A DNA stretch of 64,000 bases from Flavobacterium sp. (lineage in GTDB: Bacteria; Bacteroidota; Bacteroidia; Flavobacteriales; Flavobacteriaceae): contig JBEBUC010000009.1 in assembly GCA_040393465.1 (NCBI GenBank), forward strand, positions 10,979 to 74,978, given 5' to 3'. The notes under the pieces were generated by a model. It had not been told where the DNA came from, did not search any database, and saw only the letters and a list, made by a program, of their open reading frames with translations. Within the stretch, counting starts at the first letter, position 1, and each line of letters opens with the position of its first letter. A program made the translations under genes and the position numbers. Below, one piece after another: positions 12,649-23,664 of this stretch.

Positions 12649-14349
12649 ATGCAACTTTCAGAACAAGAAATCATTCGAAGAGACAAGCTGAGCAAATTAA
12701 AAGAGCTCGGTATCAATCCTTATCCCGCTAACCAATTTGCCGTAGACCATACATCGAAGCAGATAAAGGCTGATTTCGTAGAAGGAAAGAAGGTTGTTGT
12801 AGCCGGTCGATTAATGTCTTCACGCATTCAAGGAAAAGCTTCTTTTGCCGAGATTCAAGATAGTGAAGGACGTATTCAAGTTTACATCAATAGAGATGAA
12901 ATTTGTCCAGGAGAAGACAAAACCCTATATAATGAGGTGTTCAAAAAACTGATAGACTTAGGAGATATAGTGGGTATTGAAGGGGAATTATTTGTTACCC
13001 AAGTTGGTGAAAAAACCCTACGTGCAAAAAGCTTAACTTTATTGAGTAAATCGCTTCGTCCGCTACCGTTGCCAAAGACAGATGCGGACGGTCAAATATT
13101 TGATGCTTTTACCGATCCTGAATTGCGCTATAGAATGCGTTACGTGGATTTAGTGGTCAATCCTATAATTAAGGAAACCTTTATTAAAAGAACGAAATTG
13201 TTCAACGCCATGCGCGAATATTTCAATGAAGCAGGTTATATGGAGGTCGAAACACCTGTTTTACAACCGATTCCTGGAGGTGCAGCTGCACGTCCATTTA
13301 TCACGCATCACAATTCTTTGGATATGCCTTTATATATGAGAATCGCCAATGAACTGTATTTAAAACGTTTGATAGTAGGTGGTTTTGACGGTGTTTATGA
13401 GTTTTCTAAAAACTTCAGAAATGAAGGAATGGACAGAACCCATAACCCAGAGTTTACGGTAATGGAAATCTATGTAGCCTATAAAGACTACAACTGGATG
13501 ATGGACTTTACCGAAAATCTATTAGAACACTGCGCCAAAGCGGTCAATGGAAATACAGAAGCCGTTTTTGGCGAGCATGCGATTAACTTTAAGGCGCCAT
13601 TCAAACGCGTTACTATGGCGGCATCGATTCTGGAGTTTACAGGATTTGATATCAATGGAAAATCAGAAGACGAAATCAGAACCGCGGCTTTAGGTATGGG
13701 AATTCCCGTAAACGAGACCATGGGTAAAGGAAAATTAATCGATGAGATTTTTGGTGAAAAATGTGAAGGTAATTATATACAACCTACGTTTATCACAGAC
13801 TACCCAATTGAAATGTCGCCCTTGACAAAAGTGCATCGCGACAATCCAGAATTAACCGAACGTTTTGAGTTAATGGTTTGCGGAAAAGAAGTAGCCAATG
13901 CCTATTCAGAGCTAAATGACCCTATTGATCAAAGAGAGCGATTTGAGTCTCAAATGGCCTTATCTGAGCGTGGGGACGACGAAGCCATGTTTATTGACCA
14001 AGACTTCCTCAGAGCGTTGGAATACGGTATGCCACCAACTTCTGGTTTGGGAATTGGGATGGACCGTTTGATTATGTTTTTAACCAATAACCCATCCATA
14101 CAAGAAGTTCTTTTCTTCCCACAAATGCGTTTGGAAAAAACAACTCCCACTATTGAATTAAGTGACGAGGAAAAGGAAATTGTCGCTATACTTACAAAAA
14201 ATGAAAACAAGTTGGCCTTAAACGATTTAAAAGACCAATCCGGCTTAAGCGGTAAAAAATGGGATAAAGCCATGAAATCCTTAGCCCAACATCATTTGAC
14301 TACGGTTATTACAGAAGATGACGTAAAAAAGGTTGTTTATCAAGCCTAA
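12649..14349 (+). CDS. lysS: Lysine--tRNA ligase (class II)
   Basis: OB-fold N-terminus, [42 protein letters not shown]; about 65 aa C-terminal extension. Confidence 0.97.
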
Positions 14350-14358
14350 ACCCTATAG

Positions 14359-14400
14359 AAACAGCCTGTTTTGAAAAACCAAAACAGGCTGTTTGTTTTT
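14359..14400 (+). terminator. Intrinsic terminator after lysS
   Basis: AAACAGCCTGTTTTG / CAAAACAGGCTGTTT stem followed by GTTTTT. Confidence 0.85.
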
Positions 14401-14502
14401 AATAAAACCCCAACCAACATGGTTTATAAACTGATAAATCCTACCGTTGGTTAAGTTATTTTGAGCCAAAGAAATCCTTCTCGCACTTATTAAACCATTG
14501 AT

Positions 14503-14510
14503 TATATTTG
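14503..14510 (+). promoter_or_regulatory. -7 promoter element (TATATTTG) for the Sco gene
   Basis: Exact consensus, ending 6 nt before ATG 14517. Confidence 0.6.
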
Positions 14511-14516
14511 CACTCG

Positions 14517-15143
14517 ATGAAAGCTATAGTATTATTTTCTTTTTTAGTTGTTTTTATTTCCTGTTCTACTAATTCGGAAAAGCTTCCGTATTTGGGTAAC
14601 CACAAGGAGGTGATCTCCAGCAGCCAAACGAAAACATTACAGTACTTTAAAGTACCCGATTTCACTTTAACCAATCAGGACCGCATAACCATTACTAATG
14701 AGTCTTTTAAAAACAAAATCTACATTGCAGATTTTATTTTTTTAAAATGCCCAACCATCTGTCCAATCATGAACCAACAACTCAAAAGGGTTTATGATGT
14801 TTTTAAAAACAACGAGGATGTGTTATTTGTTTCCCACACCATCGATCCGCAAAACGATTCGATTCCCGTACTCAAAGCGTACTCCGAACAATTAGGTATA
14901 GATTCCAAAAAATGGCATTTTTTACATGGAGAAAAAAAGGATATTTATAAACTGGCAGAAAAAGGATATTTTTCACAAGCTTATGAAGATTCACAAGCTC
15001 CCGGTGGATATGCTCATAGTGGTGGTTTTATTCTAGTCGACAAAAACCGTCATCTTAGAGGAGTCTATGATGGAACTAATTCCGCAGATGTTGATCGATT
15101 AATAAAAGAAATTGTAATTTTGCTTAATGAAAAATCCAAGTAA
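14517..15143 (+). CDS. SCO family copper chaperone (lipoprotein)
   Basis: CPTIC (CxxxC) motif, FVSHTIDP, conserved His in YAHSG, lipobox FISC. ATG 14517 preferred over TTG 14508, which lies inside the promoter. Confidence 0.9.
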   Translation: MKAIVLFSFLVVFISCSTNSEKLPYLGNHKEVISSSQTKTLQYFKVPDFTLTNQDRITITNESFKNKIYIADFIFLKCPTICPIMNQQLKRVYDVFKNNEDVLFVSHTIDPQNDSIPVLKAYSEQLGIDSKKWHFLHGEKKDIYKLAEKGYFSQAYEDSQAPGGYAHSGGFILVDKNRHLRGVYDGTNSADVDRLIKEIVILLNEKSK

Positions 15144-15518
15144 GTGAAGAAAAGTATTTTAATACTATTACTACTCTCTTTTATTTACCAAAACACTTCG
15201 AGTTTTTGGATCATTTCTGCATTCTATATCAATCGTGACTACATTGCTCAAAATGTATGCATCAACAGGTTTGATTCCATTCCGGTGTGCAACGGAAATT
15301 GTTACCTTCAAAAAGAGCTGTCTGCCGATTCCGACAAAAAACCCGATCTTCCCATCATAAAAATAAAAGAGGTACAGCCCTTTTTTCATGAAACTATCCA
15401 GTACAAAACGGCTTTTACCACAGCTTTTGTTACACCAGTAGTTTATCCCAAATATTATTCGAAATTCATTATTTCTACCTTAGTTTTTTCTTTATTTCAG
15501 CCTCCTGAACTCGCTTAA
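15144..15518 (+). CDS. Cys-motif hypothetical protein 1 (candidate metal-sensing leader / arrest peptide)
   Basis: Hydrophobic N-terminus, DYIAQNVCINRFDSIPVCNGNCYLQKEL, C-terminal LFQPPELA*; paralog of 16721-17089. Confidence 0.8.
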   Translation: MKKSILILLLLSFIYQNTSSFWIISAFYINRDYIAQNVCINRFDSIPVCNGNCYLQKELSADSDKKPDLPIIKIKEVQPFFHETIQYKTAFTTAFVTPVVYPKYYSKFIISTLVFSLFQPPELA

Positions 15519-15561
15519 TTATTTTTAGAATTAGTCGAGTATAAATTAAAAACTAAATATT

Positions 15562-16428
15562 ATGCATTCAAACCGCTTGCCGGTATGCCATATTGGTTTA
15601 TTTGATGATGCGCGTAATTTCTTTATTAGCTCCATTACGGGATTATTAGAAAGATATCCCACTTTGGAATTGCCTCATGAAAGCACCTTTTACACCCTCT
15701 TGATTATTGAGAAAGGAAAAGGCGATGTGGTTATTGATAATAACAGAAAAGACATTGATGATGCGCAAGTAATCATAATAAAACCCCATTGTATTACCGA
15801 ACTAAATATAGATCGCAAAGCTGAAGGGAAAATCATTTGTTTTACAGAAAATTTTTTTTCTTTGAGATATAACAATAATATCCTCAATCAGTTCTCTTTT
15901 TTTAATGGAGAAGCGCATACAACAATCAAAGTACTAGCAGATAATTTGAGCTATATAAACGCGCTATTATCTTTTATGTGTACCGAATATAATAATACAC
16001 GAAAAGTTTCTACTAATGCCCTTCGGTCCTATTTAAATATTCTTTTGATTGAACTAGAACGCATTCACGTACCCTTAAAAACGGTTCATACCAGTAATCC
16101 AGCCCGCGAAAAAGTACAGCATTTTCAAAAATTGATTGCCAAAAACTTTAAGACCAACAAAATGCCCTCGGAATATGCCGAAATGCTTAATCTGAGCACC
16201 AATTACTTAAATAAAATATGCAAAAAAACCTTGGGACAAACCTCCGGTGACCTGATTCGAAAACAACTGGTACTGGAAGCACAGCGATTACTGCACTATA
16301 CCAACTTATCCATTAGTGAAATTGCTTACGAATTGGGATTCGAGCACGCTTCCTACTTTATCACTTTTTTTAAAAAAGGAACCAACCAAACTCCTGAAAA
16401 ATATCGGAAAACCAGAAATGACGAATAA
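15562..16428 (+). CDS. AraC family transcriptional regulator
   Basis: C-terminal double HTH (YAEMLNLSTNYLNKICK; ISEIAYELGFEHASYFITFFKK); N-terminal cupin-like region. Confidence 0.92.
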   Translation: MHSNRLPVCHIGLFDDARNFFISSITGLLERYPTLELPHESTFYTLLIIEKGKGDVVIDNNRKDIDDAQVIIIKPHCITELNIDRKAEGKIICFTENFFSLRYNNNILNQFSFFNGEAHTTIKVLADNLSYINALLSFMCTEYNNTRKVSTNALRSYLNILLIELERIHVPLKTVHTSNPAREKVQHFQKLIAKNFKTNKMPSEYAEMLNLSTNYLNKICKKTLGQTSGDLIRKQLVLEAQRLLHYTNLSISEIAYELGFEHASYFITFFKKGTNQTPEKYRKTRNDE

Positions 16429-16480
16429 GTGCGTTTTCCGAAAATGTAAGTATATGGCTAATAAACCATAGTCTTTTCCA

Positions 16481-16525
16481 GTAAAAAAGCAGTAGGCAGA
16501 CCTATTATACTACTGCTTTTTTTAC
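16481..16525 (+). terminator. Intrinsic terminator after the AraC gene
   Basis: GTAAAAAAGCAGTAG / CTACTGCTTTTTTTAC inverted repeat. Confidence 0.75.
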
Positions 16526-16720
16526 TTAATTGAATACCTAATGTCAAGCTCATTATACAGCAAGACACTAAAAATCATCAACAACAAATTCAAAATTACA
16601 AACCGTAAATACACCTCGGTTTTGTATTTTAAAAAGATGGAGACTTATTTAATCAATCCATTATTTAATACAAACAATCTTAAACTTGGTGATTGATTCA
16701 AAACGATTGACCTTTGCATT

Positions 16721-17089
16721 GTGAAAACAGCTACCCTCATATTATCTCTATTTATCTTGTTCAGACCGGTACTACCGGCTCTGGAATATGTGGTATTTTA
16801 TGATTATATCAAAAATGAACTCTGTGTCAATAAAGACAAGCCAAAAATGGAGTGCAACGGTAAATGTCACCTAAAGAAAGAACTAGCAAAAACCGCTGAA
16901 TCCGATAATAATAAAGCTAAGCAGCATACTTTTTCACTAGAAAAAAACCTGACCTACTACGCCGAAATTTTATGGGAGTTACCTCGAGATTTTGAGGTAA
17001 AAAGCATCTTTAGACCGCTGTTTTCACGCAACAGCCTGTATCATTTCTCTTATGCTACCTTTGTTTTCAGACCCCCATTACACGGCTAA
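16721..17089 (+). CDS. Cys-motif hypothetical protein 2 (candidate metal-sensing leader / arrest peptide)
   Basis: Hydrophobic N-terminus, DYIKNELCVNKDKPKMECNGKCHLKKEL, C-terminal VFRPPLHG*. Confidence 0.8.
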   Translation: MKTATLILSLFILFRPVLPALEYVVFYDYIKNELCVNKDKPKMECNGKCHLKKELAKTAESDNNKAKQHTFSLEKNLTYYAEILWELPRDFEVKSIFRPLFSRNSLYHFSYATFVFRPPLHG

Positions 17090-17412
17090 TTTACAGGGTT
17101 AGTTCGTTATATTATTTATATAGGCATCGGCTAAAGCATTTTCTTTGCTATTTAGTTGTATTGAGCTACCCAAGTATTTTCGATTTTGTCCAATTGGACA
17201 CTACAGAAATTCGCAGCCCCTTAATTCGGCACCAGCCACAGACTGTATTACTATTGTAAAAGAGTCCATGCGGTATCATTGCCCTTGCGATTGTACATAA
17301 AGTGTACTATCCCATTTGTTGTAGGCGTATTTCTCAAAGTTCCGAATTGGCAAAACGATCAAAAATCATTTAGTACGCTGTACTCCACGTCCATTTAAAC
17401 ACACTGCAAGAC

Positions 17413-18333
17413 ATGAAATACTCTATTTATTTTGCAATCGCCCTGTTAGTTGCCCTTACCTCCTGCACCGTAGATAAAACGGATTACGAAGATGAAATAA
17501 ACACTATAGTTCCCGAATATTATGATTTTAAAGAGGTGGTTTCTACCACTATAGGTATTTATAAAATCGATATTCAGGCCTTAAACGGAACTTTGTATAA
17601 AGGTTACAATGAAATTAGGATAAAGATTCTCAATACAGAAAAAAACGAAGTATTGAGCAATGCTGCAGTCGCTTTTTTAGCTGTTTTGAACAAAACAAAT
17701 GGCGACAAAGTTTCGTGTCCTCACAGTTACCATTGGGTGTATAATGCTACCGAAAAATATTATTCCGGATATACAGTATTTCCAAGCGAGAGTGCGGATG
17801 ACAACTGGAAAATACATATTCATTTTGCCGATGCTGATCAAACCGTTTCGGTTATTCAAACTGTTACTGTGAACAAACAAACGAACAAAAACCTGAATAT
17901 GACCGCTTTTACGGGCAAGGATGGCAGGCAATATATCATTGCCTTAAAAGCCCCTCAAAAGCCAACAGTATCCGAAAATCACCTCATCGCAGGAATCTAT
18001 CGGTCCGATTCTCTAAACCATAATGATGGTGCTTTTCCAGATTCTATTTTGGGTTCCTATTCAGAAGTTCAAAATCACAGCTTGCTGTTGGACCCCAGAA
18101 TGCCAGAACCGTCGATGGGCAATCATACTTCGCCTAACAATCAAGATTTGAAACAAGCTGCCGATGGCTTCTACTACGGAGTTGTCAATTATACGATGAC
18201 CGGTAACTGGACCTTGAATTTCATCCTACGCGATCAAAACGGTAAAATCATCAAGGGTACGCCTGTTTCGACAGATTTCACCCCGGGTGTTGAAGGGGCG
18301 AAGAGTGAACTTCATATTGATATTTTATTTTAG
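17413..18333 (+). CDS. YtkA/FixH-like lipoprotein, probable copper-binding accessory protein
   Basis: Lipobox LTSC; Met/His motif PRMPEPSMGNH; YYGVVNYTMTGNWTLNF resembles YtkA-like domains. Confidence 0.6.
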   Translation: MKYSIYFAIALLVALTSCTVDKTDYEDEINTIVPEYYDFKEVVSTTIGIYKIDIQALNGTLYKGYNEIRIKILNTEKNEVLSNAAVAFLAVLNKTNGDKVSCPHSYHWVYNATEKYYSGYTVFPSESADDNWKIHIHFADADQTVSVIQTVTVNKQTNKNLNMTAFTGKDGRQYIIALKAPQKPTVSENHLIAGIYRSDSLNHNDGAFPDSILGSYSEVQNHSLLLDPRMPEPSMGNHTSPNNQDLKQAADGFYYGVVNYTMTGNWTLNFILRDQNGKIIKGTPVSTDFTPGVEGAKSELHIDILF

Positions 18334-18338
18334 TAACT

Positions 18339-20321
18339 ATGAGACAAGTAACCATAGCCTTACTTTTTTGGGGAATAACAGCGCATGCACAAAGCAACCC
18401 CATTTCAAACGACACCGTAACTGCTTTAGAAAGCATTGATTTGGTTGTTATGGCAAAAAAGAAAATCGAAACCGAAATAAAAATGGCGGTATCGGTAGAT
18501 GAATTTTTGGCATCTTCTGATCAAATAAGTTTTATAAAAAGAGGTGCTTTTGCCTGGGAGCCTTTGCTTAACAATATGGGCACAGAGCGATCGACAATTA
18601 CAATTGATGGGATGCATATTTTTGGAGCGTGTACCGATAAAATGGACCCGATTACTTCCTATGTCGAGCGCAATAATTTGTCTGGAATTGACATCAAATC
18701 CGGACAAGAAGGAAGCTTACAAGGCGCAACCATTGCCGGAAGCATTGACCTCAAAAGAAACAGCACCCCTTTTGGTCGCGAGACGAAATGGAACGGAGCC
18801 TATGAAACGGGTTTCGAATTCAACAACAAACAGTTTTTAAACTTGGCAAATCTGTCGTACTCCAGTGAGAAATTTGTTGCAGATGGAAGCATTTCCTATC
18901 GGAAGGCCGATAACTACAAAGACGGAAATAACAATGAGGTACCACATTCTCAATATAAAAAGTTGAATACTTCGTTGGGCTTGGCATATAAAACCAATTC
19001 GTTATCGTCTGTGAGAATCGACGCTATATTCGATGTTGCTAAAGATGTTGGTTATCCTGCTTTACCGATGGATTTATGGCTTTCTCGCGCCATTATTACT
19101 TCTGCTTCTTACAAGCAGTTATTTGAGGACGGAGCCGTAAAAGCATGGGATACCAAAATCTATTTCAATGCAATCGAACATTATATGGATGATACCACTC
19201 GCCCAGAGAATTTGGTGCACATGGATATGCCGGGTTGGAATACCACTTACGGTTTGGTGTCCAGATTGGATTTAAAAAGCAATCGCTATCGTTCGGAAGT
19301 ACAACTCAATGCTTATCACAATTTATCCATAGCCGAAATGCGAATGTACCCGCAAGACCGCAGCAAGCGAACCATGTTTGCCTATAGTTGGCCGTGGGTT
19401 ACCACAGCTCATGCCAGTCTTTCAACAACCAATACTTGGGAAATATCAGACGAAAGCGAACTAAACTTCGGCGGTTCCTTAGGAATTAATTACAACCATT
19501 CCAAATACGTTGAATTTAACTGGATTTTTTATCCAGGAGCACCTCAAGAAAAGACGCGCTTTTTGCCTAGTCTGTATGCCAGTTACAAATTTAACCTCAG
19601 CCAATTTCGTTTTTCGTTCGGAACCGGTTATGGACACAGAGCGCCCTCGGTGTCTGAAGCTTATGGTTATTACATCTACAACAGTTTTGACCGCTACGAT
19701 TATATTGGGAATCCCAATTTAAAAAATGAAATCTCTTACGAGACCAATGCAAGTGCCGGTTTTAACAGTGGAAAATGGAATATTCAGGCCAAAGTAAACT
19801 ATTTCTATATCCAAAATTACGTTATCGGCAGGGTGCTGAGTTTGGGTAGTCCGATGAATTATCAATCCGTTGGTGTAAAGGGATACACCTCCTTAGATTA
19901 TGCGAAATTATTTAATTTCTCGCTAAACTCTAGTTACCACATTCTTGACGATTTACACTGGAACGGAACGTTAACGTATGCTCGAGGTCAAGACGACAAA
20001 AAAGGTAATTTACCGTTTATCCGCCCATTAAGCTATCAGACTTCCCTCCATTTTGGATATCGGAATTTCGGGTTTCAAACATCGGTACACGGCGATTTTG
20101 AACAGCTTAACTACAGTCCTGAATACGGAGAAGACCAAACACCGTCTTATGCCATCTGGAATTTTTCTACCGACTACCACTTTAAAGCCCAAAACAAGGG
20201 TATAACGGTTCAAATCGGCATTGAAAATATCTTTAACAAATACTATAGTACCTATGCAGACTGGGGAAATATTCCGAGAGTCGGACGCAACATTTTTACC
20301 TCATTAAAATTTAATTTCTAA
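18339..20321 (+). CDS. TonB-dependent receptor, OprC/NosA-like copper transporter
   Basis: Plug motif GACTDKMDP (CxxxM), barrel motif EHYMD (HxM), extra HMDM, IENIFNKYY...GRNIF and terminal F. Confidence 0.8.
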   Translation: MRQVTIALLFWGITAHAQSNPISNDTVTALESIDLVVMAKKKIETEIKMAVSVDEFLASSDQISFIKRGAFAWEPLLNNMGTERSTITIDGMHIFGACTDKMDPITSYVERNNLSGIDIKSGQEGSLQGATIAGSIDLKRNSTPFGRETKWNGAYETGFEFNNKQFLNLANLSYSSEKFVADGSISYRKADNYKDGNNNEVPHSQYKKLNTSLGLAYKTNSLSSVRIDAIFDVAKDVGYPALPMDLWLSRAIITSASYKQLFEDGAVKAWDTKIYFNAIEHYMDDTTRPENLVHMDMPGWNTTYGLVSRLDLKSNRYRSEVQLNAYHNLSIAEMRMYPQDRSKRTMFAYSWPWVTTAHASLSTTNTWEISDESELNFGGSLGINYNHSKYVEFNWIFYPGAPQEKTRFLPSLYASYKFNLSQFRFSFGTGYGHRAPSVSEAYGYYIYNSFDRYDYIGNPNLKNEISYETNASAGFNSGKWNIQAKVNYFYIQNYVIGRVLSLGSPMNYQSVGVKGYTSLDYAKLFNFSLNSSYHILDDLHWNGTLTYARGQDDKKGNLPFIRPLSYQTSLHFGYRNFGFQTSVHGDFEQLNYSPEYGEDQTPSYAIWNFSTDYHFKAQNKGITVQIGIENIFNKYYSTYADWGNIPRVGRNIFTSLKFNF

Positions 20322-20342
20322 ACTTTTAAAAATCTAAACAGC

Positions 20343-21209
20343 ATGAAAAATCTACAAACATATTTTTTATTGACGGCAATTTCATTACTATTTGCCTCTT
20401 GTCAAAGCGATGACAGCACCCCTGCAGCCAACAACCTAACCTTGACGTTCTCCAATACCTTTAAAGACACCCGTATTGTACTCGGTGACGCGACTTCTAC
20501 ACAGGCTACTACAAATACTTCCGCAGCGGGACAAGTACACCAATTCTCAGAACTAAAGTATGTCATCAGTCATATTCGTCTGATTAAGGCAGACGGAACG
20601 GAAATCCCCTACAACATTAATGATTTGGACCAGGGAGCAACAGTTATCGATCAGTCTAAACCGGAAACGCTCAACTACACTTTAAGTAACATCCCCACTG
20701 GCGATTATAAGCAACTAAAATTTGGACTAGGAGTAAAACGGGATTTAAATGTTTTAAATCAGGTAAAATTCCCTTTTTTCTATGCTACAGCAGGGGCAAA
20801 CGATACCAAAATGATGTGGGAATGGGGAACAGGGTACCGCTTTACCAAAATCGAGGGTTTTTATGACACCGATAAAAAAACGCTATCGATACATACCGGA
20901 AGCACCATAGAAGGAAAAGAAGGCAGTTATACTCAAGGAGTCGACTCGTATAGAGACGTCGTTCTAAATCTTCCGATACAAGCAGTAGTTGGTCATAAGG
21001 CCCCTACCATACTAATCAAAGCGGACTTTGACAAATTATTGACTGGAAAAACCCATACGATTACTTTAAGTACTGGGACTGGGATGGATGATAACGCCAC
21101 CCCAAACATTCATACCGCCAATCAAATGGTTCCGTTTGTGGATAATTTAGGAGGAAACGGTTCAAATGATGTAACGGGTATGTTTTCGATACTGAAGGTA
21201 GAAAATTAA
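20343..21209 (+). CDS. MbnP family copper-binding lipoprotein
   Basis: Lipobox FASC followed by QSDD; MMWEWGTGYRFTKIEG (WxW motif) and downstream IHTG; adjacent to an MbnH-like gene. Confidence 0.8.
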   Translation: MKNLQTYFLLTAISLLFASCQSDDSTPAANNLTLTFSNTFKDTRIVLGDATSTQATTNTSAAGQVHQFSELKYVISHIRLIKADGTEIPYNINDLDQGATVIDQSKPETLNYTLSNIPTGDYKQLKFGLGVKRDLNVLNQVKFPFFYATAGANDTKMMWEWGTGYRFTKIEGFYDTDKKTLSIHTGSTIEGKEGSYTQGVDSYRDVVLNLPIQAVVGHKAPTILIKADFDKLLTGKTHTITLSTGTGMDDNATPNIHTANQMVPFVDNLGGNGSNDVTGMFSILKVEN

Positions 21210-21285
21210 AAACACAATAGCGTCGCCTGATTTTTAGCTTTTAGGCGGCGCACTATTAAAATCTAGTTGAAAGAACTTATCTGGA

Positions 21286-22311
21286 ATGAAAAAAAAATTA
21301 GGTCTATTCTTGACGGCACTGTTATTAGCTTCGTGTGCGCACGATGACTATGAGACCGTTTTATTTGACAACCCCGAACTTACTTTACAAATTCCCGTGG
21401 ATTTTCCCGTACTAAACAACGCGGTACTGGAAAATAGACCTACCCAATACGGTGTTGAATTGGGTCAAAAACTCTTTGCAGAAAAAAGATTTAGTTCCGA
21501 CAACAGTATTTCCTGCGCCAGTTGCCACCTTAAAACAAATGCCTTTGCCGATAATCAAGCACAGGCTGTTGGAATCTTTGGACGAATTGGCCTCCGGAAT
21601 GTTCCTCCATTACAAAATCTAGCCTTTCTCCATTTTTACAACTGGGACGGTAGCAAACTGCAGTTGGAAAATCAAGTTTTAGTACCCATTATAACCCATG
21701 AAGAGATGAATTCTTCCATAGTGGAAGTAATTGATAAACTCCAAGGAGATTCAGACTATAACGAATTGTTTTATAAAGCATTCGGGGATAAAAACATTAG
21801 TGCAGAAAGAATCTATCGCAGTATCGCACAATATCAATACACTCTAATATCTGCCAACAGCAAATACGACCGGGTTAAAAACAATCTAGGAGATCGCTTT
21901 ACAGAAACGGAAAACAGGGGTTTTCAGACCTTTCAACAAAAGTGCGCCAGCTGCCATAGTACAGCGCTCTTTACCGACCAGAGTTTTAGGAACATCGGGT
22001 TCCCCGTCAACACAGATACCAATGAAGCAGGACGTGCCAGAGTTACAGGCATTGCAACCGATTATATGAGCTTTCGAGTACCTTCTTTGCGCAATGTAGC
22101 CTATACGGCACCTTACGGAAGTTTCGGGCAGTTCGCTACCTTAAAAGCGGTTTTAGATTATTTTGACAAGGGTGTGTTGTATGCCGACAATCTCGATCCG
22201 GTTTTCAAGAACAACGGCAATAGGATACCACTGACAGAACAAGAGAAGGCCGATTTAATCGCTTTTATGATAACGTTAAGCGATGAAGAATTTACCGGAA
22301 GGTTGCCCTAA
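21286..22311 (+). CDS. Di-heme cytochrome c peroxidase superfamily protein (MbnH/MauG-like)
   Basis: Two CASCH heme motifs, NWDG inter-heme Trp, GRARVT, FRVPSLRNV; lipobox LASC. Confidence 0.88.
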   Translation: MKKKLGLFLTALLLASCAHDDYETVLFDNPELTLQIPVDFPVLNNAVLENRPTQYGVELGQKLFAEKRFSSDNSISCASCHLKTNAFADNQAQAVGIFGRIGLRNVPPLQNLAFLHFYNWDGSKLQLENQVLVPIITHEEMNSSIVEVIDKLQGDSDYNELFYKAFGDKNISAERIYRSIAQYQYTLISANSKYDRVKNNLGDRFTETENRGFQTFQQKCASCHSTALFTDQSFRNIGFPVNTDTNEAGRARVTGIATDYMSFRVPSLRNVAYTAPYGSFGQFATLKAVLDYFDKGVLYADNLDPVFKNNGNRIPLTEQEKADLIAFMITLSDEEFTGRLP

Positions 22312-22356
22312 TTAAAAAAGCTACTAGAAGGCATTACTTCTAGTAGCTTTTTTAAT
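22311..22356. terminator. Bidirectional terminator between the copper locus and hemL
   Basis: 20-bp perfect inverted repeat ATTAAAAAAGCTACTAGAAG / CTTCTAGTAGCTTTTTTAAT. Confidence 0.9.
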
Positions 22357-22374
22357 CATTTTATTTTTTTTAGA

Positions 22375-23664
22375 CTAACCAACATTTTGAAAAACCGTAT
22401 TCACTGCATCTATTGTAAAGTCCAAATCTTCATAAGTCAAAGCGTCGGTTATAAACCAAGTTTCGTATGCTGAAGGAGCAATATATACGCCTTGTTTCAA
22501 TAAGCCGTGAAAAAATTCCTTAAACGTATCGTTATCGCCATAACCTGCAGTTGTAAAATCAAAAACGGGTTTGCTATCAAAAAACACTGAAATCATGGAT
22601 CCTACTCTATTGATCGTATAGTCGATATTATTTTGAGTTAACACCTGACGCAGCCCCTTTTCCAAATAGGCTGTTTTTTCTTCTAAACGGGTATATAAAT
22701 GCAAATCTTTTTCTATCTCTTGAAGCATGGTTAAACCTGCTGCCATAGCCAAAGGATTTCCAGACAGGGTTCCAGCCTGATAAACCGGCCCAACGGGCGC
22801 TAAATAATCCATAATTTCGGTACGAGCGGCAAAAGCGCCAACCGGTAGTCCACCACCAATTACTTTTCCAAAAGTTACGATATCTGCTGCTATCCCAAAC
22901 AATTCTTGTGCCCCTCCACGAGCCAAGCGAAATCCAGTCATTACTTCATCAAAAATCAATAGAGCACCGTGTTGAGTACATAAGCTCCTCAAACCTTCAA
23001 GAAAACCTTTATTGGGAGGAATACACCCCATATTTCCAGCAACTGGTTCTATAATTAAAGCGGCTATTTCGCTTGGATTGGCTTCAAAAAGCATTTTTAC
23101 ACTTTCTAGATCGTTATAATTTGCCAATAAGGTATCTTTTGCAGTTCCTTGAGTAACTCCTGGACTATTGGGCGACCCAAAAGTGACAGCTCCACTACCT
23201 GCTTGGATTAAGAAAGAATCCGAGTGTCCGTGGTAACAACCTTTAAACTTGATGATCTTTTCTCTATTTGTAAATCCCCTTGCCAAACGAACAGCGCTCA
23301 TACAAGCTTCTGTTCCCGAATTGACAAAGCGAATTTTATCTATATTAGGTACCATAGATACAGCCAATGCAGCAATTTGAGTTTCTATCTCTGTTGGCAT
23401 TCCAAAGGAAGTACCCAACTTTGCTTTTTCAATAATAGCCTGAACAACGGGTTCATAGGCATGACCCAAAATCATCGGTCCCCAAGAATTGATATAATCA
23501 ATTAACTTATTTCCGTCCTCATCATATAAATATGCGCCTAAAGCTTTTTTTACAAAAATGGGGGTTCCCCCAACGGATTTAAATGCTCTTACAGGTGAAT
23601 TAACACCACCCGGAATTACTTTTTCTGCCGCTGCAAAAAGCTGGCTGCTTCTTTGATATAACAT
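22375..23664 (-). CDS. hemL: Glutamate-1-semialdehyde 2,1-aminomutase
   Basis: [50 protein letters not shown]. Confidence 0.96.

Follow-up and report, generated by a model that had tools for sequence, protein, structure and literature searches.

A Flavobacterium locus of two transcription units that may acquire copper without methanobactin under the control of copper-sensing leader genes

The leader peptides CruR and CutF are the closest described precedents for the genes considered here. CruR (Bp2923, DUF2946/PF11162) heads the copper-repressed bfrG TonB-receptor operon of Bordetella pertussis and comprises about 145 residues with an export signal, a CXXC motif, a conserved 45-residue spacing and an RAPP motif three residues from its end, followed by a 162-nucleotide (nt) spacer (PMC9426467). 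Relatives of CruR precede OprC-type receptors, Sco, PCuAC and MbnPH in Proteobacteria (PMC9426467). CutF, encoded in cutFOG of Rhodobacter capsulatus, combines a Sec signal, a CxxxC motif and a Pro-rich tail with a short spacer in which a stem-loop hides the following start (PMC9973294; bioRxiv 10.1101/2025.02.05.636593), and the peptide undergoes export and subsequent degradation (PMC9973294). In a catalogue of 5,334 CutF-like proteins, 19% come from Bacteroidota, with TonB-like proteins as frequent neighbors (PMC9973294). Here, we describe a locus with two such candidate leader genes in a 64,000-nt stretch of DNA from Flavobacterium sp. (hereafter the window; assembly GCA_040393465.1, contig JBEBUC010000009.1, positions 10,979 to 74,978). 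Eight genes at window positions 14517 to 22311 encode a Sco protein, an AraC-type regulator, a YtkA-like lipoprotein, an OprC-type TonB-dependent receptor, MbnP, an MbnH-like di-heme enzyme and two short Cys-containing open reading frames (ORFs); all coordinates below are window positions on the forward (+) strand unless stated. Judged from its sequence, the locus most likely imports ionic copper without methanobactin, and we propose with moderate confidence that it is a two-unit copper-acquisition locus under the control of copper-sensing, stalling leader genes.

A preliminary description of the window had placed eight co-oriented genes between two terminators, and the ORF listing and terminator scan bear this out. 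The upstream boundary is the intrinsic terminator of lysS (14359 to 14394; a 15-pair hairpin followed by a T run), a gene identified by its PF00152 and PF01336 matches, and the downstream boundary is a bidirectional terminator of 20 pairs (22311 to 22356, serving both strands) common to the locus and a convergent hemL-like aminotransferase gene. The motifs named at that stage were also all located (CPTIC and YAHSGG in Sco, CTDKM and HYMDD in the receptor, WEW in MbnP and two copies of CASCH). What did not stand is the idea of a single, "complete" locus, as the genes fall into two transcription units (TUs) that differ in evolutionary spread. TU1 (14517 to 16428) holds Sco, leader ORF 1 and AraC; TU2 (16721 to 22311) holds leader ORF 2, the YtkA-like lipoprotein, the OprC-type TonB receptor, MbnP and the MbnH-like di-heme enzyme. 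Between them in the window stands a terminator-like hairpin that closes TU1 (16480 to 16526; GCAGTAG/CTACTGC core with an A run and a T run; fold of -17.3 kcal/mol), which was not listed in the terminator scan because its loop is 14 nt and the scan takes loops of 3 to 8. To compare related loci, one genome per prokaryote species was surveyed, and the best 80 of 269 relatives of the YtkA-like lipoprotein were analyzed with 10-kb flanks. The order YtkA-receptor-MbnP-MbnH is kept in essentially all 80 loci, which represent four families and come from Flavobacteriaceae, Chryseobacterium, Sphingobacteriales and chitinophagal genera, with identities to the window orthologues of 58 to 62% for the lipoprotein and 71 to 77% for the receptor; this gene order is conserved far beyond chance. 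The Sco-leader-AraC module was found near the core in 6 of the 80 loci, three times upstream and three times downstream. Because the core is near-universal in related loci, the Sco-leader-AraC module is sporadic and a terminator-like hairpin stands between them, the locus is a conserved core (TU2) plus a lineage-specific accessory module (TU1). The synteny survey proposed in the preliminary description as a check on the locus is thereby divided in its outcome: the TU2 core is co-conserved, and co-conservation of the Sco-leader-AraC module is confined to those six loci.

Both leader ORFs have the build of an exported, Cys-containing peptide with a Pro-Pro end. Leader ORF 1 (Cys-ORF1; 15144 to 15518; 124 amino acids [aa]) starts at a GTG that abuts the Sco stop codon, has a hydrophobic N terminus, carries C39-x9-C49-x3-C53 and ends in FQPP-ELA-stop. 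Leader ORF 2 (Cys-ORF2; 16721 to 17089; 122 aa), its paralogue, also starts with GTG, has a hydrophobic N terminus and carries C35-x9-C45-x3-C49, a 67-residue linker and the tail FRPP-LHG-stop, so that in both ORFs Pro-Pro (codons at 15501 to 15506 and at 17072 to 17077) lies three residues before the stop. Among the 120 best homologues of Cys-ORF2, 117 combine C-x9-C-x3-C with a C-terminal F-[RHKQ]-P-P followed by one to four residues and then a stop; the Cys box reads CNGKC in 109 of these, and the Cys-to-PP spacing is 66 to 70 residues. Like CruR, the window leaders have an export-like N terminus, are about 120 residues long and carry an invariant Cys motif, leader 2 stands at the head of a TonB-receptor operon, and the distance between Cys motif and Pro-Pro is near-fixed, with Pro-Pro equally close to the stop. 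The long spacer is also shared (162 nt in CruR compared to 323 nt after leader 2), with leader 1 and its 43-nt gap as the exception, and partner genes, as in the CruR family, include OprC-type receptors, Sco and MbnPH. The likeness to CutF lies in the CxxxC motif with an extra upstream Cys, the Sec-type N terminus and the Pro-rich C terminus and, for leader 1, in a short gap with a hairpin over the next start. Both window leaders have the features by which CutF-like proteins are recognized, namely, fewer than 150 aa, a PP among the final 15 residues, a hydrophobic N terminus, a co-directional gene within 1000 nt and CNGxC. The leaders thus look like functional counterparts of CruR and CutF that are not DUF2946 members. 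Leader-peptide control, as first suggested for this locus in the preliminary description, is well supported by this architecture and by the precedents of CruR (PMC9426467) and CutF (PMC9973294). The accompanying view that the layout is uncharacterized in Flavobacteria holds only in part, as CutF-like leaders have been catalogued in Bacteroidota by bioinformatics (PMC9973294) and the partner genes are known from Proteobacteria (PMC9426467).

Within the 80 related loci, leaders occupy three positions. In 74 loci a leader lies directly upstream of ytkA, with a gap of 150 to 384 nt (median 299), a Cys-to-Pro-Pro spacing of 65 to 70 residues and mostly an F-[RHK]-P-P tail. A second class lies between the receptor gene and mbnP (31 loci; gap mostly 43 to 67 nt, in some 176 to 254; spacing 62 to 64; tail V-P-P-P), and a third between sco and araC (six loci; gap 28 to 46 nt; spacing 66 to 67; tail F-[QH]-P-P). 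Leaders of the second class (e.g., in loci L004, L009 and L012) end in VPPP plus one to five residues; the window has none, and its gap at that position is 21 nt. Common to the three classes are only the hydrophobic N terminus, the Cys box, the spacing and F-x-P-P, and identity in the linker is 21 to 30% compared to 50 to 60% for the Cys box and tail. The median 15-aa hydropathy at the N terminus is 1.9 to 2.6, and it is from hydropathy that the export-like character was judged. Searched against 1.84 billion proteins, a profile of the family matched 8,077 representative clusters; it also found members in 109 of 301 sampled Bacteroidota genomes. All 20 of the distant Bacteroidota members followed up end in PP or PPP near the stop, and at least 16 of the 20 precede OprC-like receptors, MbnP-MbnH, YtkA-receptor pairs or a gene followed by Sco. 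No Pfam family matched any of 28 leader members. Of the 74 leaders that head an operon, 64 lack an in-frame ATG ahead of the hydrophobic segment, so that their start codon must be GTG or TTG; because of these starts, leaders are often miscalled, truncated or missed by gene callers, and the database entry for leader 2 of the window is an 80-residue truncation that begins at Met42. Canonical DUF2946-like ORFs, with CxxC and R-A/G-P-P and 2 to 4 residues before the stop, were seen in other Bacteroidota (loci L081 to L086), so that both types of leader are present in the phylum. All parts of the locus are of known kinds, and the leader family looks like a sequence-distinct Bacteroidota variant of the CruR/CutF principle.

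The DNA around the leaders is consistent with a regulatory role. Promoter-like elements of TU2 (16686 to 16716) comprise a -33 TTG at 16686 to 16688 and a -7-like GACCTTTG at 16709 to 16716, 4 nt ahead of the leader-2 GTG. The arrangement [AG]AC[CT]TTTG-N4-GTG recurs in many loci, and TAnnTTTG, which is the -7 consensus of Bacteroidota, is found 19 to 25 nt upstream in another 35 of 74. The 323-nt intergenic region between leader 2 and ytkA (17090 to 17412) contains no canonical -7 box. Across loci, TAnnTTTG is rarer in the leader-ytkA spacer than in shuffled sequences (12 of 75 compared to 18.9 ± 3.7), and the window spacer has none; this depletion speaks for a transcript that opens with the leader. 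The spacer can be aligned among the closest relatives only and folds modestly better than shuffles (z = -2.0). Shortly before ytkA (window 17395 to 17402), a T-T/A-A-A-A-C motif 10 to 15 nt ahead of the ATG recurs in divergent loci. Downstream of leader 1, the inverted repeat at 15480 to 15556 forms a hairpin in which leader-1 codons just 5' of Pro-Pro pair with the 16 to 21 nt before the araC ATG (minimum free energy of -16.9 to -22 kcal/mol; duplex z = -3.1 compared to shuffles). The hairpin recurs in three of the surveyed loci (L001 to L003) with one compensatory change and is predicted to mask the araC start. Bacteroidota initiate translation largely without Shine-Dalgarno sequences, and given this mode of initiation the masked element would, unlike that of CutF, be the start region itself. 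Among the short-spacer leaders ahead of mbnP, complementarity to the start region has a mean z of -1.5, with 41% below -1.64.

We propose that each unit, TU2 headed by a leader and TU1 carrying one, would be governed by a leader of about 120 codons whose nascent product senses copper via three invariant cysteines. The ribosome on the leader would pause at the C-terminal Pro-Pro, three codons before the stop in the window. On leader 1, the pause would open the hairpin over the araC start, as in CutF; on leader 2, it would shield the transcript from premature termination across 323 promoterless nt, as in CruR. Copper would relieve the pause and thereby turn uptake off. Stalling that is relieved by copper, as in CruR, is favored because the target genes are uptake genes. 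On the protein side, the OprC-type receptor would import ionic copper, the YtkA-like lipoprotein, MbnP and the MbnH-like enzyme would complete a phylum-wide core, and the Sco chaperone would pass copper to CuA-type enzymes. The analysis establishes what the genes are, how their ligands and order are conserved, and how the leader family is built and distributed, whereas copper binding, stalling and its sign, the target of AraC, the surface location and the route to Sco are inferred.

Several results count against this regulatory part of the proposal. Unlike CruR, the leaders carry C-x9-C-x3-C and not CXXC, F-[RHKQ]-P-P (VPPP before mbnP) and not RAPP, and a spacing of about 67 and not 45 residues. 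Membership of DUF2946 was considered and rejected, with no match in a six-frame search of the genome at E<=10 and a probability of 2% from hhalign against six Bacteroidota DUF2946-like ORFs; as no relation of the leaders to DUF2946 is detectable, the stalling mechanism rests on analogy. Masking of the ytkA start by a stem-loop with the 3' end of the leader was tried and set aside (mean z of -0.28), as was a strong C-over-G "rut" bias in the long spacers, which proved weak (median C/G ratio of 1.16). Neither for 19 sequences of the mbnP class nor for seven of the araC class did RNAalifold give a consensus structure downstream of the leader. CruR and CutF respond oppositely to copper, and the sign of copper regulation cannot therefore be deduced from the precedents. 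Unlike the window leaders, which precede uptake genes, CutF turns on a detoxifying oxidase with copper. A further difference from CruR is that leaders of the window type mostly start with GTG or TTG. An Rfam search of 14300 to 22500 gave no credible RNA family.

An alternative hypothesis is that the Cys-ORFs encode stable small copper proteins, membrane-anchored or periplasmic, which serve as chaperone-like factors or uptake subunits, with F-x-P-P as an interaction or sorting motif. This would fit the conserved N-terminal hydrophobic segment, the 30-residue Cys box (Y-D-Y-I-x3-L-C-x-N-x3-P-x3-C-N-G-K-C-x-L-x-K-E-L), which is conserved beyond a bare CxxxC, the huge size of a family under purifying selection and the failure to find conserved RNA structure downstream. 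However, a linker of low conservation makes up roughly half of the protein, yet its length varies by no more than a few residues across classes that share only about 20% identity, PP is always one to six residues from the stop, 64 of 74 genes start with GTG or TTG, and the ORF invariably precedes copper genes read in the same direction and itself comes immediately after a promoter-like box. An AlphaFold model of leader 2 has confident helices only at its N terminus (pTM 0.26), residues 63 to 122 are predicted without secondary structure, and CutF, which has the same build, is exported and then degraded (PMC9973294). We therefore consider stable copper proteins unlikely as the main explanation, and note that a stable product and a leader function are compatible with each other.

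Copper as the substrate is indicated first by the receptor (18339 to 20321; 660 aa). Its only matches of solved structure are to OprC of Pseudomonas aeruginosa (6fok; residues 35 to 640, 606 residues, E 9e-10), and the copper ligands of OprC (CxxxM and HxM) are all aligned, GACTDKM (CTDKM at aa 98 to 102) corresponding to GACPNRM and EHYMDD (HYMDD at aa 281 to 285) to DHIMDN. All 80 receptor orthologues keep GACTDKM and EHYMDD unchanged, and a receptor motif of the CxxxM/HxM type has been pointed out in a homologue from Bizionia (PMC11213822). The receptor therefore likely takes up ionic copper through a Cys/Met/His/Met site. It resembles OprC as a TonB-dependent receptor with aligned, conserved CxxxM and HxM ligands, and differs from it in being distant in sequence, shorter and paired with a YtkA-like lipoprotein and MbnPH. 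The Pfam TBDT domain gave no match to the receptor at E<0.01. From Flavobacterium to Chitinophagaceae-like genomes, receptor identity is flat at 71 to 77% irrespective of taxonomic distance, which is unusual for a TonB-dependent receptor and could stem from strong constraint or from transfer inside the phylum. The absence of an mbnB-like gene, reported in the preliminary description for the window, extends to the genome: MbnB/DUF692 is lacking across the 95%-complete assembly, which supports the suggestion of chalkophore-independent copper import made there. Copper as the substrate, also suggested there, gains support from the invariant OprC ligands, from aligned ligands in Sco and from an MbnP that scores above the Pfam threshold and retains WxW.

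The same genome holds a second copper-receptor operon, without MbnP or MbnH, on contig C33 (5553 to 8910), where a third leader ORF with the tail LFRPPVCL-stop heads a pair of YtkA-like lipoprotein and OprC-like receptor. The receptor paralogue is 43% identical to that of the window and keeps CTDKM and HRMDD, and the YtkA-like paralogue passes PF13115 at 33.1 bits.

The YtkA-like lipoprotein of the window (17413 to 18333), modeled as two Ig-like beta-sandwich domains, is encoded by a gene that ends 5 nt upstream of the receptor gene. It matches PF13115 weakly (E 0.011; 16.9 bits against a threshold of 25.9), and the same profile matches all 18 aligned orthologues (best E 6e-9). Residues His104, Met163, Met230, Met235, His238 and Met262 are invariant in orthologues, in part within the motif RMPEPSMGNH, and the invariant His and Met residues plausibly form a Cu(I) site. 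A fold search with the model, tried as a source of a functional lead, brought up nothing but double Ig sandwiches of antibody type, at low TM-score.

Directly downstream of the receptor gene lies the pair of MbnP and MbnH-like genes. The MbnP-family lipoprotein (20343 to 21209) matches PF20243 (E 4e-35; 121.9 bits against a cut-off of 27) and carries WEW at aa 159 to 161, within an M[MH]WEWG motif found in all 79 MbnP sequences. Next to it, the MbnH/MauG-like di-heme lipoprotein (21286 to 22311; PF03150, E 7e-48) has CASCH twice, the Trp of NWDG, PYGSFG and DYFD, and its best Protein Data Bank match is 6e1c (E 2e-33), which we take to be MbnH of Methylosinus trichosporium. The gene adjoins mbnP in 77 loci, and the pairing of MbnP/MbnH with a copper TonB receptor, given as established in the preliminary description, is syntenic in essentially all 80. 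As in M. trichosporium OB3b, there is an adjacent pair, a WxW motif and a MauG-like enzyme with two CxxCH motifs and an inter-heme Trp. Unlike in OB3b, there is no methanobactin operon, both window proteins are lipoproteins with surface-export-like signals, PYGSFG stands in place of PYMHDG of MbnH and the Tyr column is displaced by one position. The replacement (window 22111 to 22167) is widespread, TAPYGSFG being kept in 73 of 77. As both PYGSFG and the shifted Tyr are conserved, we read them as a subfamily trait and not as decay. A kynurenine-forming mechanism that depends on MbnH has been published (PMC11951088), and by analogy the WxW tryptophan of MbnP would presumably be converted to kynurenine by the adjacent MbnH-like enzyme, forming a copper site.

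Other features of TU2 fit this assignment less well and tell against it. The best NCBIfam matches fall short of their cut-offs for all three proteins: TIGR01778 (TonB-copper) for the receptor (94.7 bits against 472.45), the equivalog MbnP-like-WxW (TIGR04052) for MbnP (58.2 against 140) and TIGR04039 ("MbnH family") for the di-heme protein (200.4 against 362.85). Sequence and profile searches with MbnP did not reach the solved MbnP 7L6G, and an attempt to map its copper ligands onto that structure by sequence or profile failed. In the heme-ligand region of the MbnH-like enzyme, Phe occupies the Tyr column of 6e1c and the conserved Tyr lies one residue earlier (VLDYFD). Finally, the locus encodes no inner-membrane importer.

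The N termini of MbnP and the MbnH-like enzyme suggest where they might act. In Bacteroidota, the minimal export signal of lipoproteins consists of one residue that is polar or positive and then two acidic ones, located after the lipobox Cys (PMC5080379). The Cys is followed by Q-S-D-D in the MbnP of the window, and the residues from the Cys onward read C-S-S-D-D-D in MbnP orthologues and C-S-N-D-D-x-E in MbnH orthologues. MbnP and MbnH orthologues thus match the minimal signal; Sco, with non-acidic residues, and the YtkA-like lipoprotein do not. Because their post-lipobox residues match the export signal, MbnP and MbnH may act on the cell surface, ahead of the receptor. The relay order first suggested, from the receptor to MbnP/YtkA-like and on to Sco, would be reversed in part by surface export of MbnP and MbnH. 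Protein-based extracellular copper capture has a precedent in the CorA/MopE proteins of methanotrophs and their di-heme partners (PMC3912023). The window pair is like CorA/CorB and MopE/SACCP, where a copper-repressible copper protein at the cell surface, bearing a kynurenine site, shares its transcript with a di-heme peroxidase-like protein (PMC3912023), and unlike them in the fold of the copper protein (PMC11951088). For those operons neither a TonB receptor nor a leader ORF is described, and the surface location in the window is deduced from the export signals. A bolder version of our proposal, to which we give only tentative credence, would see the leaders as independently evolved, non-DUF2946 copper-arrest peptides placed before the regulator, the receptor and often mbnPH, and MbnP/MbnH as a surface capture machine that feeds the receptor.

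A further MbnH-like sequence occurs on contig C11 of the same genome (86281 to 93192) as the C-terminal half of a 599-aa protein. Behind it come a Cys-rich 121-aa ORF with the tail WLPPKLA-stop, two HMA-domain proteins, a TlpA-like thioredoxin, and one protein each of outer-membrane-like and DsbD-like type. This short ORF might encode a further metal leader with a Pro-Pro tail, from a family other than that of the window leaders.

In TU1, the Sco1/SenC-family lipoprotein (14517 to 15143; PF02630, E 1e-23, 84.1 bits against 22.8) carries CPTIC at aa 78 to 82 and YAHSGG at aa 165 to 170. Its best matches of solved structure are the Bacillus Sco proteins 4hde and 1xzo, with CxxxC and the distal His aligned, and COX2 is encoded elsewhere in the genome. 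The ORF begins with ATG 14517, and a TTG lies upstream at 14508. A perfect, promoter-like TAnnTTTG box, TATATTTG (14503 to 14510), lies 6 nt before this ATG, and the TU1 transcript is probably leaderless or has a very short 5' untranslated region.

The third gene of TU1 encodes an AraC/XylS-family regulator (15562 to 16428) with an N-terminal cupin-like domain. It scores above the cut-offs of PF12833 (E 3e-21; 76.1 bits) and PF00165 (47.4 bits) and matches PF02311 weakly; no NCBIfam equivalog was reached, HpaA being the best at 116 against 275. Seven orthologues of 49 to 86% identity all keep Cys9, His39, Cys77 and Cys93 in the sensor domain, and this invariance hints that the regulator itself may sense a thiophilic metal or redox state. 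A candidate AraC operator, AATCAATCCATTATTTAATACAAACAAT (16651 to 16678), contains TCAATCC and lies directly upstream of the TU2 promoter. TCAATCC precedes the leader in seven of seven loci with the AraC module (six fetched plus the window) compared to 1 of 68 without it, against a background of 0.02 per 260 nt. AraC probably acts at this candidate site just upstream of the TU2 promoter, and control by AraC, which had been proposed for the locus as a whole, gains support from the tie between the TCAATCC element and the AraC module. No AraC orthologue was found at E<=1e-40 in 100 other genera of Flavobacteriaceae, which makes AraC control lineage-specific.

It could also be argued that the locus confers copper tolerance, through sequestration or redox buffering in the envelope, and is induced by excess copper much as CutF controls CutO. 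CutF, the closest motif type (CxxxC with a Pro-rich tail), does turn on a detoxification gene with copper (PMC9973294; bioRxiv 10.1101/2025.02.05.636593), Sco proteins have been tied to oxidative-stress defense (PMC11213822), and the di-heme protein belongs to the peroxidase superfamily. Yet the central gene encodes an OprC-type TonB-dependent importer, the locus is without an efflux pump, P-type ATPase or multicopper oxidase, and OprC-type receptors under CruR-like leaders are copper-repressed (PMC9426467), making a role in tolerance very unlikely. Least probable is that the locus handles heme, iron or another thiophilic metal and that its copper-like motifs are coincidental: the receptor does score almost as well with NCBIfam models for hemoglobin/transferrin (E 2e-26) and heme (5e-20) receptors as with TonB-copper (6e-27), all far below cut-off, and some CutF-like leaders are tied to nickel or cobalt (PMC9973294), but OprC alone is matched among solved structures, with Cys/Met/His/Met aligned and kept in all 80 orthologues, the receptor is accompanied by MbnP, an MbnH-like enzyme and Sco, and the leaders bear Cys motifs, not His-only ones, and across the phylum precede OprC-like receptors, MbnPH and Sco.

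Copper acquisition outside methanotrophs and the role of MbnP/MbnH in the absence of methanobactin are both poorly understood. If MbnP and MbnH do capture copper at the surface and feed it to the receptor, the system would be a functional counterpart of a chalkophore, built like the lipoprotein-receptor pairs of Sus or Hmu. The locus is kept across much of the Bacteroidota with unusually high identity, and one homologue from the lipoprotein search is named as Flavobacterium johnsoniae. As F. johnsoniae is genetically tractable, the relative of the core operon in this species opens the roles of MbnPH, the YtkA-like partner and the OprC-type receptor to direct testing. Naming the leader family, for which there is no Pfam model, would improve the annotation of thousands of genomes. 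If the proposed copper-sensing leaders are real, metal-sensing translational arrest of the kind described for CruR and CutF would extend to a second major phylum.

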